Below are positions 5,512 through 38,790 of a stretch of 64,000 bases of DNA, piece after piece (position 1 is the first letter of the stretch; each line of letters begins with the position of its first letter). Source of the DNA: Clostridiales bacterium (GTDB lineage: Bacteria > Bacillota > Clostridia > Christensenellales > Borkfalkiaceae); NCBI GenBank assembly GCA_015069565.1, contig SVIJ01000001.1:8056-72055 (forward strand), given 5' to 3'. The position numbers were made by a program, and so were the translations under genes. The notes under the pieces are model-generated. The model was not told where the DNA came from. It worked only from the letters and a program-made list of their open reading frames with translations, and did no database searches.

Positions 5512-6666
5512 ATGGAAAAAGAAAAAGAAGTAATTTCGGAAGATTCCGTATCCGTGGAACAGTGCGCTCCTGAAACGCTTACGGAAGAAACGGCGGTTGC
5601 GGCGGCTACGGCTGACGCGGTGGCGGATACGGTGAATACGGAAGAGAGCGAAAAGTCGGAAGAAGGATTCCTTTCCGACAATATCCGCGTGCTTTCGCCT
5701 GGGAAACTGGTTGCAAAGCGGTTTTTCCGTTCCCGTTTGTCGATGGTCGGCTTGATCATCATTGTCACGCTGTTCTTGATTTCCTTCATCGGGCCGTTGT
5801 TCTCGCCTTGGGGGGAAAAGACGCAGGACCTTTCTGGCGGTGCGCCCATTCACGGCGTGACGGGCTTTGAGTTCAAAGCGCCTGGCGACGAAGAAGTGAT
5901 TAGCGCGTACATCGAAACGATCTCTTACCCTGAAATGAACAGAAACCAAACGACCCCCACGTGGGATCACTGGTTGGGTACGGACGATATGGGGATGGAC
6001 ATTCTCACACGTTTGATGTACGGTGGACGTATTTCCCTGACTCTTGGCTTTATCGTTATCATTTTAGAAACGATTTTAGGGATCATATTAGGCGGTTTAG
6101 CAGGCTATTTTGGGAAGTGGGTGGACGCCGTCGTTATGCGTACGGTCGATATCCTAAGCTGTATCCCGTCCTTGCCGATTATGCTAATTATCAGCGTTAT
6201 TCTCGATTCCAACGGGGTCGACGGGCGGTATAAGATCTATTACATGATGGTAATGATGACCGTTCTAGGCTGGTCGGGGATTGCTCGTCTTGTGCGCGGG
6301 CAGGTGTTGATGCTTCGCGAGCAGGAATATATGGTCGCGGCGGACGCTTGCGGTATTCCCGTATCCCAGCAGATCTTCAAGCACCTTGTGCCGAACATTA
6401 TGCCGCAGCTCATCGTCACGATGACGCTTGGTTTGGGCTCTATCATTTTGACGGAAGCGACGCTTGGGTTCTTGGGGCTCGGCGTAGAATATCCCAGCGC
6501 GTCTTGGGGTACGATGATCGAAGCGGGCTCAAATCCCGACGTTTTGCGTAGTGGGTTCTGGAATATGTGGATTCCCGCAGGTATATGTATCGTTTTGGCG
6601 GTGTTGGCGTTCAACTTTATCGGCGACGGCTTGCGCGATGCGTTTGACCCGAAAATGAAGAGGTAA
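5512..6666 (+). CDS. Opp/Dpp-type ABC permease (OppC-like) with acidic N-terminal extension
   Basis: C-terminal 300 aa is a typical OppC-like permease (HWLGTDDMGMDILTRLMYGGRISL...). About 60 aa of E/A/T-rich extension precedes TM1. Confidence 0.9.
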   Translation: MEKEKEVISEDSVSVEQCAPETLTEETAVAAATADAVADTVNTEESEKSEEGFLSDNIRVLSPGKLVAKRFFRSRLSMVGLIIIVTLFLISFIGPLFSPWGEKTQDLSGGAPIHGVTGFEFKAPGDEEVISAYIETISYPEMNRNQTTPTWDHWLGTDDMGMDILTRLMYGGRISLTLGFIVIILETILGIILGGLAGYFGKWVDAVVMRTVDILSCIPSLPIMLIISVILDSNGVDGRYKIYYMMVMMTVLGWSGIARLVRGQVLMLREQEYMVAADACGIPVSQQIFKHLVPNIMPQLIVTMTLGLGSIILTEATLGFLGLGVEYPSASWGTMIEAGSNPDVLRSGFWNMWIPAGICIVLAVLAFNFIGDGLRDAFDPKMKR

Positions 6667-22445: not shown

Positions 22446-22740
22446 ACTGTCCGAAGTGGTGAATTGAACGCAATGCGTTCGTGAATTGAAACCTGCGGTT
22501 TCGTGAATTCTCGCTGACGCTCCGTGAATTGTTTGCCTTTGGCAAACGTTGCGGAAAAATTGAAAATCATTCCATAACGCAAGGCAACGCCTTGCAATTC
22601 ACGACGGCATAGCCGTCAATTCACGCGTTTGAAAAACGCAATTCACGATTGCCTTTGGCAATCAATTCACTCCACAGCGATATGTTTGCCTACGCCAAAC
22701 GTGGGGAACGTAGGGCGGGGGCTTGCTCCCGCCGAATGGG
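22446..22740. repeat. Hairpin-array element, copy A (GTGAATT/AATTCAC type) plus GC-hairpin module
   Basis: Core 22459..22670: 4 x (GTGAATT + short hairpin), a central hairpin, then 4 x (hairpin + AATTCAC). Followed by GCGATAT + GTTTGCC..CCAAAC and GGCGGGGGCTTGCTCCCGCC. Confidence 0.85.
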
Positions 22741-23535: not shown

Positions 23536-23756
23536 TTGTCCTTGCGGACAAGCGAGATTACGCCTGCGGCGTAGTGAGATTTACCTGCGGTAAGCGATAT
23601 TATGCTACGCACAGCGATATGTTTGCCTGTGGCAAACGTAAACGTAGGGCGGGGGCTTGCTCCCGCCGAATATAGGGACGGGCGTTCCTAATCGTCCAAA
23701 TGTAGGGGAGCGGTTTACGCTCCTGACAAAACGGGCGATTCGTGAATCGCCCCTAC
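23536..23756. repeat. Hairpin-array element, variant copy A' (GYGAKAT type) plus GC-hairpin and multibranch module
   Basis: TTGTCC-TTGC-GGACAA; GCGAGAT+TACGCC-TGC-GGCGTA; GTGAGAT+TTACC-TGC-GGTAA; GCGATAT...; GCGATAT+GTTTGCC-TGT-GGCAAAC; GGCGGGGGCTTGCTCCCGCC. GTAGGGG...CCCCTAC encloses two further hairpins. Confidence 0.75.
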
Positions 23757-31994: not shown

Positions 31995-32139
31995 ATTCTA
32001 CTCCTTTGAACGGTTTTTCCGCGTCAAGGACAGTATGCGCCGAACGGCTTGTGAAATATGCGAAACTTTCACAGGAAAAAACAGGAAATTCCTGCAAAAA
32101 AGGGTTGTAGAAAAGAGAAAAGTATGGTACAATAAGCGT

Positions 32140-32958
32140 ATGGAAAAAAGAGTGATTGCCTTTGATATCGGCTGCAAAAGAATCGGCGTGGCGATTTCCG
32201 ATCCCTTTGGGGAGTACGCGATGCCCTGCGAAACCTACCATCGTACCCGTTCCTTTTGGACGGACGTGGAAGCGATTGCAAAAATCGCAAAGGACAGGGG
32301 GGCGGCGGTGATCGTTTGCGGTATGCCCGTCAATTTTGACGGCTCGGAAAGTATTCAGACGGTCAAGACGCAGGAGTTTGTGGACGCCTTGAAGGAAAAG
32401 ACGGATATTCCCATCGCCTTGGAAGACGAGCGGTTCACCACGATGCAGGCGCGTGAAGTGCAAATTCAAGGGGGCGTAAGACGGGAAGATCGGAAAAAGA
32501 GTATCGACTCGATTGCGGCGTCGTACATTCTCGACGGGTACTTGGAGAGAGAGAAGAAAAGACGTCGGGCGGAAGCGGAAGAAAGGCGGCGCAAAGAGGC
32601 GCTCGCTTGGAATATAAAATCGGCAAGGAGAGATATAACAATGGATATGGAAAACATGGAAGAATACGAAGAGCTCAACATTTTGGAGCTTGAAGACGCA
32701 GACGGGAACGTGGAAAAGTTCGCGCATATCGCGACGATCGAATACAAGGGCGAAAAATACTGCTGTTTCCAGTTCGCTGAACCCGAAGACGAAGAACAGG
32801 AAGACGAAATCGTGATCTTCCACTTGGTTGGCGAAGGGGAAGACGCTCGTCTTTTCGAGATTGAAGACGAATCCCTTTTGGACGAAGTGTTTGCGGAGTT
32901 CTGCGCACAGTACGAGCAGTATGAAAATGCGGAAGACGCAAAGAAGCTGGATTCCTAA
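32140..32958 (+). CDS. ruvX: Holliday-junction resolvase-like RuvX (YqgF) fused in frame to a DUF1292-like acidic domain
   Basis: N-terminus RVIAFDIGCKRIGVAISD...AVIVCGMPVNFDGSE...ERFTT. A K/R/E linker follows. C-terminus DADGNVEKFAHIATIEYKGEKYCCFQ...IVIFHLV...LFEIEDESLLDEVFAEF. No stop between the two parts. Confidence 0.8.
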   Translation: MEKRVIAFDIGCKRIGVAISDPFGEYAMPCETYHRTRSFWTDVEAIAKIAKDRGAAVIVCGMPVNFDGSESIQTVKTQEFVDALKEKTDIPIALEDERFTTMQAREVQIQGGVRREDRKKSIDSIAASYILDGYLEREKKRRRAEAEERRRKEALAWNIKSARRDITMDMENMEEYEELNILELEDADGNVEKFAHIATIEYKGEKYCCFQFAEPEDEEQEDEIVIFHLVGEGEDARLFEIEDESLLDEVFAEFCAQYEQYENAEDAKKLDS

Positions 32959-32975
32959 TCTCGTTTGGAACGGTA

Positions 32976-33308
32976 GGGCGGGGGCTTGCTCCCGCCGATT
33001 GTAGGGACAGGCGTCCCCGACTGTCCGAAAAAGTGAATTGAACGCTATGCGTTCGTGAATTGAAATCTACGATTTCGTGAATTGTCGCTTGCGCGACGTG
33101 AATTGTTTGCCGATGGCAAACGTTGTGGTAGAATTTAAATTTTTCCATAACGCAAGGCAGAGCCTTGCAATTCACGACGGCTGTGCCGTCAATTCACGCG
33201 TTTGAAAAACGCAATTCACGATTGCTGTAAGCAATCAATTCACTTTGCCGCTTGCCGTATGAGATCCTTCGGCTACGCTCAGGATGACAAAGTGGGGCGC
33301 GTCAGGAT
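32976..33308. repeat. Hairpin-array element, copy B (GC hairpin + core 33033..33243 + GAGATCC module)
   Basis: See the finding at 33033. 304 bp (32976..33279) repeat at 35026..35329 with 4 mismatches. Confidence 0.9.
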
Positions 33309-33388
33309 GTTTGGAACTCAAAAATTAGAACGAAAGGGGCAGGTACGCGTTGAATGTGCACGTGTATCCAAGTGAAAGGAGAGGAAAT

Positions 33389-34864
33389 ATGAAAAAGAAA
33401 CTGCTTAGTGTATTGCTTGCGCTGTGCGGCGCGTTTGCGTTTACTGCCTGTGGTGGCGGAGATGGCGATAGCGTCGTTCTCGATAACAACTCCACGCCTG
33501 CGGCAAGTATCCCGACGGATTCCACGCCTGCGGACACTACGCCCGCCGAACCCGTCTTGCAGGATATGGATACCGCTTTTTCGGGTGCGAAAATTCTTTG
33601 GGAAAAGAGCCATTTGAGCGCAATGAATTCCCCTATCAAAACTTTCGAAGAAATCGTAGACCAACAGCTTGAACTTTTGGCGCAGGATTTAATCTACCGT
33701 CTTACGTATGTGTATGGGTACAATGAAACAGTACCTGTTCGACAATATATTCCTGTGACGCAACCATTAATGGTCAACGGAACGGAGTTGTCATGGAATG
33801 GTTATCCAGCAGAAATCGAAAGTGGGAAGTTGCTCGTAAATACTGGGGCTTCAAAACATGACGTTACTCATACCGTGAGCACTATGCACGTGGATTGCTT
33901 GTATTGCTATCAAACGTCCTTAGTTGAATACAATAATAATGCAAATCGTTTTCACCATACGTCTAATTTTTATTTATCTGGCGCAATGGAGGGAAGATAT
34001 TATAGCGCGGGCGCATTGGATAATGATGAACTTTCCGATACGAGCGTTCCCGAAAAAAAGTGGATTTATTCTTTGGATATAACCACTTATGAAAGTTACC
34101 TAAACTCCTACAAAAATAATTTCAAAATGGCTTTGCTGGAAATTGCAGGGAATAAAACGGTAACGGGTGATTATAGCGACGATGTATATCAAAATTTATT
34201 GCAATCTGTCAACACGTTTTTTATAGATGAAACAAAAGTTGCTGAATATATCTTATCAAAGGTCATTGGATCGAATTTGGTGGAATTTGACGAAGCTGTT
34301 TATGCTCAAAACTTTACAGACGCAGCAAATAAAATTTGTCGGTCTAAGTTTGGGGATATCGCGATATTTGGCGAATATGCTCCCCATTATTATAAGGCGT
34401 ATAAAAAGGTAATTCCTGCGATTGTGGAACAGGCGCTTGCGAACACCTTTGAAAATACGGACGTTTGTATCTATCCCGTGGTGAATAGATATGCCGTAAA
34501 TACAATCAATCATTATCAAATCGGCGGATCGTCGACGATGCGCGAAGCGGTGCTGATGCCCAAGGCGGGTGAAGTGGGAACGCTTACGGTCTTCGTGGAA
34601 GGAAATGAAGACTTTACGCTTTCCTACGACGTGTCGGTAAACGGCGTTGTGACGAGCAAGACTGTACAGGTCGTTTTGACGGACGGCAAAGCAACAGTGG
34701 ATTTGGATATTTCCGAAACGTTTGGCGCGTATAACGGAAACACGAACTCTTACACGGATGACTACATATACGGAAATTCGGGCGTGGATAGCCATGGTGA
34801 TAATTATATCGTATTTTACTACGATCGCGAAGATATGCACCTGTGGTTTAAGGGTGTGAAGTAA
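33389..34864 (+). CDS. Hypothetical lipoprotein (491 aa), AT-rich cassette gene
   Basis: RBS AAAGGAGAGG. Signal plus lipobox (AFAFTAC-GGGDGD). The central part is visibly AT-richer than its neighbours. Confidence 0.75.
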   Translation: MKKKLLSVLLALCGAFAFTACGGGDGDSVVLDNNSTPAASIPTDSTPADTTPAEPVLQDMDTAFSGAKILWEKSHLSAMNSPIKTFEEIVDQQLELLAQDLIYRLTYVYGYNETVPVRQYIPVTQPLMVNGTELSWNGYPAEIESGKLLVNTGASKHDVTHTVSTMHVDCLYCYQTSLVEYNNNANRFHHTSNFYLSGAMEGRYYSAGALDNDELSDTSVPEKKWIYSLDITTYESYLNSYKNNFKMALLEIAGNKTVTGDYSDDVYQNLLQSVNTFFIDETKVAEYILSKVIGSNLVEFDEAVYAQNFTDAANKICRSKFGDIAIFGEYAPHYYKAYKKVIPAIVEQALANTFENTDVCIYPVVNRYAVNTINHYQIGGSSTMREAVLMPKAGEVGTLTVFVEGNEDFTLSYDVSVNGVVTSKTVQVVLTDGKATVDLDISETFGAYNGNTNSYTDDYIYGNSGVDSHGDNYIVFYYDREDMHLWFKGVK

Positions 34865-34953
34865 AAAACAAAATAAAAGGGGCAGGTATGCGTTGAAAGG
34901 CGTACTTGCTTTTTTTTGTGTAAAGCAGGGGAAGCGTTTCTGGGGGAACGGTT

Positions 34954-35329
34954 GAGATCCTTCGGCTACGCTCAGGATGACAAAGTGGGGGTGCTCAGGA
35001 TGACGAAGTGGGGCGCTCGGGATAGGGGCGGGGGCTTGCTCCCGCCGATTGTAGGGACAGGCGTCTCCGACTGTTCGAAAAAGTGAATTGAACGCTATGC
35101 GTTCGTGAATTGAAATCTACGATTTCGTGAATTGTCGCTTGCGCGACGTGAATTGTTTGCCGATGGCAAACGTTGTGGTAGAATTTCAATTTTTCCATAA
35201 CGCAAGGCAGAGCCTTGCAATTCACGACGGCTGTGCCGTCAATTCACGCGTTTGAAAAACGCAATTCGCGATTGCTGTAAGCAATCAATTCACTTTGCCG
35301 CTTGCCGTATGAGATCCTTCGGCTACGCT
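34954..35329. repeat. Hairpin-array element, copy C (GAGATCC module + GC hairpin + core 35083..35293)
   Basis: Direct repeat of copy B, offset by exactly 2050 bp. Confidence 0.9.
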
Positions 35330-35385
35330 AATGTATAATTTTTTATAAAAATTACAAAAAATGCTAAAAAGGTGGGTGAAATCGG

Positions 35386-35414
35386 TTGATTTTAACCCGC
35401 CTTTATGCTAAAAT
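35386..35414 (+). promoter_or_regulatory. Promoter of rpsB-tsf
   Basis: TTGATT, 17-nt spacer, TAAAAT. Confidence 0.5.
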
Positions 35415-35531
35415 GGAAAGGCTGAAATTCACACTCGCAATCTGCGCGTAATCCGTGTCCGTAAATTTTTTTCATGCGGACGTCGTATACGAGCCAACGC
35501 AGACCGAGGAGGAAAAACGGAGGTATGAATT

Positions 35532-36284
35532 ATGGCAGTTATCACTATGAAGCAGCTCTTGGAAGCAGGCGTACACTTCGGTCACCAGACCAGAAGATGG
35601 AACCCCAAAATGAAGAAGTACATCTTCGCGGCAAGAAACGACATTCACATCATCGACTTGCAACTCACCGCTAACTTGATCGAAGAAGCGTACAAGTTCG
35701 TTGTGGAAAGCGTTAAGGCAGGCAAGTCCGTTCTCTTCGTTGGTACGAAGAAGCAGGCGCAAGATGCAATCAAGGAAGAAGCAGAACGTTGCGGTATGTA
35801 CTACGTCAACTCTCGTTGGCTTGGCGGTTGCCTTACCAACTTCAAGACGATGAGAAGCCGCGTTGAACGCCTTGAAAAGCTTGAAGCTATGGAAGCTAAC
35901 GGCGATTTCGATCTGCTCCCCAAGAAGGAAGTTATGCTCCTTAAAAAGGAAATGGGCAAGTTGCAGGCAAACCTTGGCGGTATCAAGAAGATGAAGAATA
36001 TGCCCGGCGTTATGTTCGTGGTTGACCCCCACAACGAAGATATCGCTATCAAGGAAGCAAAGAAGCTTGGCATCAAGATCGTTGCGATCACCGATACCAA
36101 CTGCGATCCCGATGAAATCGACTACGTAATCCCCGGCAACGACGACGCTATCCGCGCAATCAAGCTCATCTCTTCCGTAATTGCAAACGCAGTTATCGAA
36201 GCAAACCAGGGCGAAGAAGCGGTGGCAGCTCCCGTTGAAGAAGCAGTTGCAGAAGAAGCAGTAGCGGCGGAAGAAAACGCGTAA
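35532..36284 (+). CDS. rpsB: 30S ribosomal protein S2
   Basis: [22 protein letters not shown]. Confidence 0.95.
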
Positions 36285-36332
36285 GCTTTGCTTAAATCAG
36301 AAAAATCATAGAAAGATAAGGAGAATAGAATT

Positions 36333-37225
36333 ATGGCATTCACGGCTAAAGACGTAATGGCGCTCCGTGCAAGAACGGACGCTGGCGTAATGGATTGCAA
36401 AAAGGCTCTTACCGACGCTGACGGCGATATGGATAAGGCGGCAGACCTTTTGAGAGAAAGAGGTATCGCAAAGGCGGCTAAGAAGGCTTCCCGTATTGCG
36501 GCGGAAGGTATCGTTGCTTCTTACGTAGAAGGCAACGTGGGCGTATTGCTCGAAATCAACTGCGAATCCGACTTCGTTGCAAAGAATCCCCAGTTCGCGG
36601 AAATCGCAAACGTAATCGCAAAGGTTATCGTTGCTTGCGATCCTGCTGACGTAGACGCTTTGCTTGCTTGCGAAGTTCCTGGCGAAGGCTCGGTGGAAGA
36701 TTACTTGAAGAGCAAGATCGCTGTTATCGGCGAAAAGATTGCTGTTCGTCGTTTCACGAAGTACGTTTCGAACGGCTTCATCGCTACCTACATTCACTTG
36801 GGTGGCAAGCTCGGCGTTATGCTCGATATGAACGGCGAAAACACCGAAGAAGCTGCGGCGGTTGCGCACGACATCACCTTGCAGGTTGCATTCACGAAGC
36901 CTACCTATCTTACGAAGGATCAGGTTTCCGAAGAAGCGCTTGAAAAGGAAAAGGCTGTATTGAAGCAGCAGGCAATCAACGAAGGCAAGCCCGAAGCAAT
37001 CGCTGAAAAGATGGTTATGGGTAGAATCAAGAAGTACTACGAAGAAAACTGTCTTGTAGAACAGGCGTTCATTAAGGACGACAGCGTGAAGATTGCTGAC
37101 CTTTTGAAGAAGGGCAACGTGACCATCGCAAACTGCGTATTCTACGTAATGGGCGAGGCCTTGAAAAGAAGAGCGAAGACCTTAGCGAAGAAGTTGCAAA
37201 GCAAGTTGCGGCTATGAAGAACTAA
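36333..37225 (+). CDS. tsf: Elongation factor Ts (apparent 1-nt frameshift near the 3' end)
   Basis: MAFTAKDVMALRARTDAGVMDCKKAL. The listed ORF ends at 37217 with a non-canonical tail. The canonical tail LEKKSEDLSEEVAKQVAAMKN* lies in the +2 frame and ends at 37225. Confidence 0.9.
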
Positions 37226-37283: not shown

Positions 37284-37286
37284 TTT

Positions 37287-37496
37287 TTAGATAGAAAAAA
37301 GCTCGTTGGGGGTAACTTCGTAGATTTGACACAGAAATAGAATTTGTTGGTAATTCAATTCAAATACTCCGTTTTCAAACCGACTGTATTGCTGTTGTGT
37401 CATTCCCATTTTTGCCGCAACTTCTTTTTGAGTGAAACCTTTGAATTTGCGCGCTTCTTTTAAATTATTACCGATCTTTTTGCTTAAACATTCCAT
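37287..37496 (-). CDS. XRE-family HTH regulator (69 aa)
   Basis: MECLSKKIGNNLKEARKFKGFTQKEVAAKMGMTQQQYSRFENG. Internal start at 37496 preferred over the listed 37664. Confidence 0.75.
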   Translation of the reverse strand: MECLSKKIGNNLKEARKFKGFTQKEVAAKMGMTQQQYSRFENGVFELNYQQILFLCQIYEVTPNELFSI

Positions 37497-37592
37497 ACGA
37501 AAAAAACATACCACAAAATGATGTAAAAGTCTTGACATACAACACAAAGTGATGTATAATAACAACAAGGAAAATGATAAAGTGAGGTTGCT

Positions 37593-38723
37593 ATGGAAGA
37601 AAATAAGGATTTGGAGTACGTGGAAGAGGAAACTACCGCAGAGGAAATTGCGCTTGCCGATCAAATGGGAGAATGCTTGCTGAAAGTATGGAAACTGGTC
37701 GGGTGCTTTGTGGCGGGGTGGATCGCTATGATGATCGGAATGACTTTGATCGATTATCGTGTAGATCAGTTCGCAATAGGTATCGTCTTTTTCATCGGCG
37801 GCGTTGCGTTGATGCCCCTGCCGAGCGTTATGCTGTTATGGGGCGGTGCAGGGTTTAGAGAATTATTTGATACCGATTATTTCATTGAAACGACTTATGC
37901 AGACGGACGAAAAACGGTGCAATTTGACGGTTCGATGACGTTTGCGAGTAAAATTGCCACTTTAGCGGTCGCTTTTTTGGCTGGTTTCATAATCACTCCC
38001 ATCCGTATCGTGATTGGTGTAATCAGTTTCCAAAAGGCGAAAAAAGAGTTGGGGATAGAAAAATTGCCAATCAAAGAAGACGTTAAATTCCCGTTCTTGG
38101 TGGCGATTTTGGCGTTCGTTGTGGGCTGCGTGCTGAATCTTGCCGTCACGAATATTGCAGGGGCGGTGCAGGACAAACAGATGCACACAGGTGATTACAC
38201 GGCGGAGGAAACGCTGGAAATCGTGGAGGGTTGGAAGAATTCAATGGCGGAACAATCCTTTTCGTATCGTGTCAATGGGAGTTGGTTGGAGGAAGGCAAT
38301 CTTTGTATCATTGACGTCAATTATGATAGGGGCGTGTACGCATTTACTGTCAGCAAAGCCAACAAGGGTGCAAGTGATAGAGTGTTCACGGAAGCGGATT
38401 CCCCGTTGCCTTTCGGTGTGTATTTGTATGAGGACGGCGAGTGGTCGCAAAACGCAAATTCTTTGTCGATAGACCAAAAGAGATTACTCAAGAGTTGCAC
38501 CTTGGACGCATATTTTGAAGCGTTCACGAGCCGTGAAACGATATTGAAGAATAATTCGTTTATGGGCGAAGAAGGTTATCGCCTTATGGTATATTATGAT
38601 TGGAATGGCGAAGAAAAATGTATGTTCTGGGAAGTTTACAAAAATGGTAATAGACCTTACCGAATCAACGGTTACGAAGGCTTGGGAGAGCTTTACGGTT
38701 CGGGTGACATTATGTTTGACTGA
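37593..38723 (+). CDS. Hypothetical 4-TM membrane protein with a soluble C-terminal domain (376 aa)
   Basis: Divergent from the XRE gene. Hydrophobic segments at about aa 35-85 and 120-190. I recognise no motif. Confidence 0.6.
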   Translation: MEENKDLEYVEEETTAEEIALADQMGECLLKVWKLVGCFVAGWIAMMIGMTLIDYRVDQFAIGIVFFIGGVALMPLPSVMLLWGGAGFRELFDTDYFIETTYADGRKTVQFDGSMTFASKIATLAVAFLAGFIITPIRIVIGVISFQKAKKELGIEKLPIKEDVKFPFLVAILAFVVGCVLNLAVTNIAGAVQDKQMHTGDYTAEETLEIVEGWKNSMAEQSFSYRVNGSWLEEGNLCIIDVNYDRGVYAFTVSKANKGASDRVFTEADSPLPFGVYLYEDGEWSQNANSLSIDQKRLLKSCTLDAYFEAFTSRETILKNNSFMGEEGYRLMVYYDWNGEEKCMFWEVYKNGNRPYRINGYEGLGELYGSGDIMFD

Positions 38724-38753
38724 TTGAGTAGGATATTGTAGGGTGAAAAGTGA

Positions 38754-38790
38754 GAAGCGTGCGAATGAGTTCCGCACGCTTCGTTGTTTT
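38754..38790 (+). terminator. Intrinsic terminator
   Basis: GAAGCGTGCG-(9 nt)-CGCACGCTTC followed by a T-rich tail. Confidence 0.6.

Follow-up and report, generated by a model that had tools for sequence, protein, structure and literature searches.

The stretch analysed here, referred to as the window, is 64,000 nucleotides (nt) long and corresponds to G000:C51:8056-72055 in a metagenome-assembled genome (MAG) of a Clostridiales bacterium. The MAG has 1.27 Mb, is 83% complete and has a GC content of 50%; the source contig is Joint Genome Institute (JGI) 3300031555 Ga0318466_10007999. Between a ruvX-DUF1292 fusion gene and rpsB, which starts at 35532, the window carries a gene for a 491-residue lipoprotein, framed by two direct repeats of 304 nt, R1 on the left and R2 on the right (Table 1). 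An earlier reading made from the letters alone, called here the original prediction, had correctly placed the gene between ruvX and the rpsB promoter, and had correctly described the two repeats as offset by 2050 nt, with 4 mismatches and no insertions or deletions, a similarity far beyond chance.

Table 1. Features of the ruvX-rpsB spacer and its surroundings, and the one transposase gene considered in the text
Feature	Position	Strand	Remarks
ruvX-DUF1292 fusion gene, anchoring the variable slot on the left	32035..32958	+	Pfam RuvX 2.9e-38, DUF1292 4.4e-9; homology to all relatives stops at or just past the stop codon
17-nt spacer TCTCGTTTGGAACGGTA, left junction of the 'empty'-type haplotype	32959..32975	+	same in lipoprotein-less L197 and L200; 5-6 positions different from the junction of L175
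Left copy R1	32976..33279	+	A1 hairpin 32976-32996, A2 hairpin 32997-33027, two-armed array 33033-33243, linker, first 20 nt of C module 33260-33279
Array core of R1	33033..33243	+	4 x (GTGAATT + G..C hairpin), centre GTTGTGGTAGAATTTAAATTTTTCCATAAC (33122-33151), 4 x (hairpin + AATTCAC)
Left C module (TGAGATCCTTCGGCTACGCT + CAGGATGAC unit)	33260..33309	+	opening 20 nt double as the end of R1; also 5' of the lipoprotein gene in L072, L073 and L175
Upstream 22-mer copy (hairpin module D), no T tract, in lipoprotein leader	33333..33372	+	member of a dispersed hairpin family; also in L072, L073 and L175
Lipoprotein gene, 491 aa	33389..34864	+	signal peptide (lipobox Cys21), then a disordered linker rich in Thr/Pro, a variable middle of helical fold and a conserved beta-sandwich at the C-terminus
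Hypervariable low-GC central segment	33718..34391	+	GC 0.376 versus 0.46-0.50 at the gene ends; 0.38-0.43 in the strain comparison
Intrinsic terminator after the lipoprotein gene, formed by the downstream 22-mer, its complementary arm and a T tract	34876..34915	+	kept in all alleles
Middle C module + extra 23-nt CAGGATGAC unit, immediately 5' of R2	34953..35025	+	C module 3' of the terminator in all lipoprotein-bearing strains
Right copy R2 (A1, A2, array, truncated C'), adjoining the rpsB promoter region	35026..35329	+	state 2222 at the four variable positions
rpsB promoter + leader (AATGTATAAT...), right anchor of the slot	35330..35531	+	predicted TTGATT-17-TAAAAT at 35386-35414; homology to every relative restarts at 35327-35330
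RAYT-like HUH transposase gene, single copy (L081, L082)	G000:C52:12325-12849		no array within 4.5 kb

Both repeats are composites. The same 285-nt block, made of two hairpins (A1 and A2) and an array of GTGAATT units, stands on either side of the gene and continues each time into 20 nt of a C module, which completes the 304 nt. The array units of R1 are spaced about 22 nt apart, the second four mirroring the first four, and the predicted RNA fold of the copy reaches -133.5 kcal/mol (z = -9.2). Copies of the C module, (T)GAGATCCTTCGGCTACGCT, begin at 33260, 34953 and 35310, the third being truncated after 20 nt, and two 22-mers lie at 33333-33354 and 34876-34897, all as first described. R1 and R2 differ at repeat positions 41, 50, 162 and 243, where the left copy has C, C, A, A (state 1111) and the right copy T, T, C, G (state 2222). 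Three of the four right-copy states look derived, judging from the consensus linker AATTCAC and from the C10 copy, which agrees with the left one at positions 50 and 162. The best consensus promoter predicted upstream of the lipoprotein gene, TTGCCG-16-TGgTAGAAT at 33107-33134, falls inside R1. An Rfam search, including the Gut-1 model RF01706, returned no match (E <= 1 over 32000-36500; E <= 10 over 32960-33320).

The repeats at this locus belong to a dispersed modular family of intergenic sequences, which the original prediction had missed. The 304-mer has 74 BLAST matches in its own genome, and none of the three nested repeats of the locus is specific to it. We counted about 65 half-arrays in the 1.27-Mb genome, 283 occurrences of the 8-mer GTGAATTG where about 39 are expected, about 30 copies of the A1 hairpin (GGGCGGGGGCTTGCTCCCGCC) and 94 occurrences of the word GGCAGGTRYGC contained in the 22-mer. 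The recurring order of modules is C, A1, (A2), array, C, and in most full copies the array core ends in 11-nt terminal inverted repeats (AAAGTGAATTG ... CAATTCACTTT). Copies of the same unit share their array stems and differ freely in their loops; in the genus as a whole the heptamer persists and the stems are entirely different. There are minor families with other linkers (GCGATAT, GTGAAGT, GTGATAT and GCGAGAT), as well as chimeric elements that join a GTGAATT left arm to an ATATCGC right arm. Since the arm linkers of these chimeras are not complementary, the ability of the arms to pair is not conserved. No target-site duplication was found at R1, at R2 or at the sites compared with G061, the nearest GTDB representative. 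The most similar copies tend to be neighbours: all three pairs with at least 98.6% identity have direct orientation and a spacing of 1.7-2.05 kb, and of the 11 pairs with at least 94% identity 5 lie within 12 kb, where the chance of a random pair sharing a contig is 2.9%. One such pair brackets the essential rplM-rpsI operon. We considered whether the direct orientation is a by-product of a strict orientation rule; the bias relative to transcription is only mild (C 7:3, A1 8:4), and the idea was dropped.

The ruvX-rpsB spacer was compared with loci from other samples and genomes (L-numbered contigs), found via identical or near-identical encoded proteins. The conspecific set covers eleven samples of the same species with flanks 97-99.98% identical, and the genus comparison 61 genomes, all incomplete MAGs. 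Across the genus, ruvX and rpsB are 211-290 nt apart in about a dozen species and from 0.7 to more than 7 kb apart in others, with varied cargo that often includes lipoproteins. Four structural alleles occur within the species. In the first, ruvX is followed by the 17-nt spacer, A1, three or four GCGATAT units and rpsB, without the lipoprotein gene (L192, L193, L194 and L197; 98% identical); a difference of one GCGATAT+hairpin unit (3 against 4) separates L192 from its sister strains L193, L194 and L197, a polymorphism in unit number comparable to that of boxB modules. The second has ruvX, a C module, the lipoprotein gene with its terminator, a C module and rpsB, without the A1-A2-array block (L175, whose flanks are 97.7-99.5% identical to the window; its downstream side also in L177 and L195). 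Accordingly, R1 is missing from L175, whose upstream spacer has only a C module, and R2 from L175, L177 and L195. The third allele is that of the window (R1, C, lipoprotein, C, R2), and each of its halves was recovered from another sample: L201 contains ruvX, the left copy and the 5' end of the lipoprotein gene (99.94% identical, unmixed 1111), and L196 the 3' end of the gene, the right copy and rpsB (99.98%, unmixed 2222). With both junctions recurring in this way, we rejected the idea that the two-copy state is an assembly artefact. In the fourth allele, found in yet another sample (L200), ruvX, the 17-nt spacer, one repeat and rpsB follow each other. Beyond the species, three distant lineages (L072, L073 and L176) have the lipoprotein gene at the same site with other module combinations, diverged C-type units taking the place of the left C module in L176. 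The flanks, once joined, are colinear with empty sites and show no target-site duplication. G061 was at one time taken as an empty site, with a ruvX-rpsB distance of 211 nt and no repeat, but it belongs to another species (77% nt identity in ruvX) and lacks arrays, and the conspecific contigs superseded it. A metagenome scan with RuvX retrieved 65 loci, none of them conspecific and none with the lipoprotein gene at this site. Within one species, the slot would hold either a small repeat alone (A1 plus hairpin array) or an accessory lipoprotein gene flanked by C modules.

The fourth allele is the empty site, with a single repeat between ruvX and rpsB, that the original prediction had proposed to look for in related material. 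The one copy in the assembled contig L200 is a chimera of those in the window, with left-copy bases at positions 41 and 50 and right-copy bases at 162 and 243 (1-1-2-2), in an otherwise identical background (0 mismatches in 1,563 nt on the left, 2 in 550 nt on the right). One crossover in the 111-nt stretch over which R1 and R2 are identical explains this chimera. L200 is probably a real allele and not a mis-assembly. R1 and R2 would then be a substrate for ordinary homologous recombination, presumably of the RecA type, and one crossover between them would remove a 2,050-nt segment with the lipoprotein gene and leave a single chimeric copy. The claim that the gene is poised for excision is supported by L200. 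Our preferred reading, to which we give a probability of roughly two in three, is that the ruvX-rpsB spacer is a variable slot, that the repeats in it are passive and non-coding, and that their pop-out by homologous recombination is seen as the allele of a near-identical strain. Several points weigh against it. L200 is a short metagenome contig of 2,417 nt, and the same chimera would result if repeat collapse had caused a mis-join within the 111 nt that are identical; no circular junction was observed; the reading leaves the spread of the repeat family unexplained; and, as regards the origin of the doubled state considered below, the parents required by a cross between strains (a single copy in state 1111, and C-lipoprotein-C followed by one A1-A2-array copy) were not seen with the right states, while the 17 nt of the left junction do not fit a simple copying into an L175-like site.

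Taking L200 at less than face value, one may hold that the two repeats are real, a stable local duplication without excision, and that the assembler switched from the left copy into the right one. The small size of the contig and the position of the switch, in the longest identical stretch, where a change of path in a de Bruijn graph is also expected, speak for this. Against it, metagenome assemblers usually finish with k-mers longer than 111 nt, L200 ends in unique coding sequence rather than at the repeat borders, as expected where no branch arises at the repeat, and other gene-less alleles of the species stand on long contigs (L192, L193 and L194). We consider such a switch unlikely. The same single-nucleotide polymorphism (SNP) patterns would also fit the mirror image of the deletion, namely capture, in which a 2,050-nt circle with one repeat and the lipoprotein gene integrated by a single crossover into an L200-like copy, and in the genus at large this slot is a hotspot whose cargo varies. 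A deletion is the simplest course, because for integration the circle would have to carry a repeat with exactly the complementary chimera (2-2-1-1). In addition, conspecific and more distant strains already have the lipoprotein gene at this site with no 304-nt repeats beside it, and there is no replicon or recombinase nearby, which makes integration quite improbable.

The relationship of the repeats to the gene admits further explanations. If R1, gene and R2 formed a composite transposon flanked by MITEs (transposable elements of the miniature inverted-repeat kind), a transposase recognising its ends would move the whole as a unit, and the genome offers a candidate, a single RAYT-like HUH enzyme (NF047646 at 77.8 bits, for a cut-off of 80; PF01797 at 32.9 bits); the 11-nt terminal inverted repeats of the array core would suit it. 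The borders of the 304-nt repeats, however, are A1 and a truncated C module instead of the ends of the array itself, no target-site duplication was seen at the sites compared, and the R-gene-R unit is found at this locus only. The RAYT-like gene is present in 3 of the 61 genomes of the genus (homologues in only 2 of the 60 others searched), as opposed to 24 of 61 for the arrays, and its flanks have no abundant repeat words; four genomes (G068, G076, G005 and G003) have 37-84 array matches each and no RAYT homologue. As the RAYT-like gene neither co-occurs with the arrays across the genus nor is flanked by them, mobilisation in the manner of RAYT and REPIN was rejected, and we regard the composite transposon as extremely improbable. 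Otherwise both copies might be old, with continuing gene conversion holding them 99% alike and with losses in the strains that lack them, a view that can appeal to the generally higher similarity of nearby family members. Yet the 98%-identical L175 lacks both copies and the distant L072 and L073 lack the left one, and several independent clean losses would be needed, nor did any of the deep-branching lineages of the genus that were searched show the two-copy state; this too is very improbable. A more speculative possibility, which we rate as a long shot, is that an undescribed system of site-directed recombination uses A1 (GTAGGGCGGGGGCTTGCTCCCGCCGAA) and the C module as attachment sites, where it would insert arrays and whole surface-protein genes at a fixed hairpin position. 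It would fit that at three A1 sites arrays lie after GTAGGGCGGGG, the 11-nt duplication of which bounds a GCGAGAT-type array inside A1, and that the C-lipoprotein-C unit follows a partial A1 start (GGATAGGGGYG) in L072, L073 and L175, with a full A1 after the unit in L072. If true, the 304-nt bracket would be one state of a programmable surface-antigen locus with on/off switching and allele swapping.

Under the preferred reading of passive repeats in a variable slot, the remaining issue is which of gene and repeats came first. The original prediction of capture by the repeats did not hold: the lipoprotein gene stands at the same site without them in conspecific and more distant strains, and the essential rplM-rpsI operon is bracketed likewise by a sister array. 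From both facts together it follows that the repeats came to the gene and not the gene with the repeats; the lipoprotein gene is a resident accessory gene of the slot. Of the two explanations first offered for the high identity of the copies, recent duplication agrees with the data, given that R1 and R2 are 98.7% identical, that the best match of either to any other copy in the assembly is at most 92%, and that conspecifics with the lipoprotein gene have no copy on the sides their contigs cover (both in L175, the downstream one in L177). Ongoing conversion between old copies is unnecessary, close relatives being without them. This supports both copies being recent additions in one lineage. Two routes to the doubled state can be envisaged. 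In one, an 'empty' one-copy chromosome would have recombined with a lipoprotein-bearing chromosome that had one copy downstream, with one crossover in the 20-nt homology between C' and C and the other in or beyond rpsB. Such a cross would fit because the left junction of the window (17 nt plus A1) is of the gene-less type and not that of L175, because the end of the repeat coincides exactly with the joint between truncated C' and the rpsB promoter, and because the 1.3% divergence of R1 and R2 is like the 1-2.5% found between strains. In the other, the element would have been copied locally into the neighbouring spacer, which has a precedent in the GCGAGAT-type array present at the same A1 position on both sides of rplM-rpsI.

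The true exchangeable cassette, likewise missed at first, is the centre of the lipoprotein gene. The gene had been described as AT-richer than its surroundings; this stands for the centre only (GC 0.33-0.42 at about 33700-34450), both ends being at about 0.46-0.50, like the genome (0.50). The coding ends (the first ~330 nt and the last ~470 nt) are 85-99% identical between strains, while the central ~670 nt of the window have no blastn similarity to the alleles of L072, L073, L175, L176 and L177. At the protein level, the central domain falls into three allele classes, with 19-30% amino acid identity between classes and 98-99.5% within them, and members of one class turn up in backgrounds with a 10-22% difference in the flanking genes. 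It is because the ends are conserved, the centres dissimilar and the classes shared across backgrounds that we regard the centre as the exchanged part. Recombination in the conserved coding ends would exchange the central domain among strains and species, independently of the 304-nt repeats. The sharing of classes across backgrounds implies either recent interspecies transfer or long-lived balanced alleles, and such central variation is what one expects of a surface target under diversifying selection.

The lipoprotein belongs to a large family without annotation. We retrieved 449 homologues, and searches of Pfam and NCBIfam gave no match. The lipobox, MKKKLLSVLLALCGAFAFTAC followed by GGG, was read by eye; Cys21 does not vary among 6 homologues, and across 44 its conservation is at least 90%. 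The AlphaFold2 (AF2) model, with a predicted local distance difference test (pLDDT) of 78.5 and a predicted template modelling score (pTM) of 0.77, places a helical middle between a disordered linker and a C-terminal beta-sandwich. For the C-terminal domain, the best Foldseek matches were CBM29, CBM4 and CBM11 (E = 0.009-0.03; target template modelling score 0.33-0.39), a weak resemblance, with none at E <= 0.001. The gene has no paralogue in the genome, and the closest homologues found (P0001 and P0002) are also at the ruvX-rpsB locus. A 50-residue member of its cluster (P0122) was discarded as a homologue, its sequence being unrelated. In L176, a lineage 88% identical, three C units, A1, A2 and the left half-array only stand upstream of the lipoprotein gene (L176:4335-4653), and the GTTGTGGTATATT of this array is about 20 nt from the ribosome-binding site (RBS) of the gene, so the array end may serve there as its promoter. 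The extended -10-like array end and this abutting half-array led us to try the half-array as a portable promoter in general; the rule was rejected, since solo half-arrays face gene 3' ends 13 times and gene starts 4 times in a crude open reading frame (ORF) map.

Other members of the repeat family show related arrangements. The rplM-rpsI operon is bracketed by 147-nt direct repeats, 98.6% identical (G000:C12:1038-1184 and 2814-2960; L178 and L183), each a GCGAGAT/GCGATAT half-array inside A1 after GTAGGGCGGGG, with a GCGAGAT-type array of 126 nt. The same A1 position upstream of rplM and downstream of rpsI is occupied in the strain of the window, in L180 and in L182; both copies are missing in the conspecific L181, and where present they are 98.6-99.3% identical. 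Downstream of rpsI, L184 has a different block, a full GTGAATT element with C modules. Within the window, an XRE module is bracketed by GCGATAT-hairpin and A1 modules (22673-22737 and 23610-23671), whose identity over 65 nt is only 89%; these form an older pair of this type. At 392 nt and 99% identity, the pair at G000:C52:4323-4714 and 6004-6395 (L179) is the longest near-identical one in the genome. It consists of the 3' coding part and terminator of neighbouring low-GC ORFs (31-41%; 185 and 278 residues) with different N-terminal parts, and may be another swap-type locus. In IMG/VR, only three viral contigs (L203, L204 and L205) have at least three consecutive GTGAATTG units; in L204, arrays in inverted orientation occupy both contig ends. 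As to the surroundings of the slot, RuvX and DUF1292 form a single ORF in the window and in many members of the genus and two separate adjacent frames in others, a fusion/fission polymorphism. A second strain-variable islet lies 2 kb downstream between tsf and pyrH, where a helix-turn-helix (HTH) gene and a gene for 376 residues (37286-38770) are present in L192 and L196, absent in the conspecific L175 and replaced by other genes in L195.

The mechanism we propose would be ordinary homologous recombination, acting on an unusual repeat family for which the literature apparently has no description and which is abundant among uncultured gut Clostridia. Tiny structured repeats would in this way reshape genomes within a species, as copies arise in neighbouring spacers and a direct pair makes the enclosed gene deletable. 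The surface lipoprotein is found in about half of the conspecific contigs and could be a useful marker for strain-level ecology, because three very different central alleles shared across species are a signature of a phage or host-immunity target. A caution for annotation follows as well: a gene flanked by direct repeats need not be a mobile cassette when the repeats are a dispersed family, and bracketing by these particular repeats is no evidence of one, because the essential rplM-rpsI operon is bracketed likewise.

Deletion by homologous recombination between direct repeats (pop-out) is familiar, for example, from genes flanked by directly repeated copies of an insertion sequence (IS) or a MITE. 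The present case is alike in that dispensable DNA lies between two direct copies, each at least 300 nt long, and in a one-copy product with a chimeric repeat and no target-site duplication. It differs in that the repeats are non-coding composites of hairpin arrays instead of IS, and in that the event is read from contigs of different samples rather than seen in culture. A composite transposon, in contrast, would be expected to recur as R-gene-R elsewhere and to duplicate its target, neither of which was found. The proposed cross between strains resembles homology-facilitated illegitimate recombination (PMC3240628), with a long anchor on one side (rpsB plus repeat) and 20 nt of C homology on the other; here, unlike there, it is inferred only, and the parental alleles were not found.

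As for the repeats themselves, Gut-1 (RF01706; PMC2864571) is a comparable orphan structured RNA motif known only from gut metagenomes, whose Rfam model does not match here. With the REP, BIME and REPIN sequences and their RAYT enzymes (PMC3116915, PMC3337134), the family shares short, non-coding, palindromic intergenic units in many copies with strain-to-strain turnover. As in REPINs, inverted halves can fold into a long hairpin, which here has two mirror-image arms of four units (z of the fold, -9.2). Unlike in REPINs, it is a 7-nt linker that stays constant, the hairpin stems all differ in sequence, there are four units per arm, some elements are chimeras of arms with different linkers, and the sole RAYT-like gene is not flanked by repeats and shows no co-occurrence with them across the genus. 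The terminal inverted repeats at the ends of the array core recall MITEs. The pneumococcal BOX elements, boxA-(boxB)n-boxC (PMC3049150), are likewise modular composites with variable tandem internal modules (here three or four GCGATAT units) and predicted stem-loops, cluster with and insert into other repeat families, and have no dedicated transposase known. The modules described here differ in being mini-hairpins of 13-19 nt joined by a fixed heptamer, and a relationship in sequence is not to be expected.

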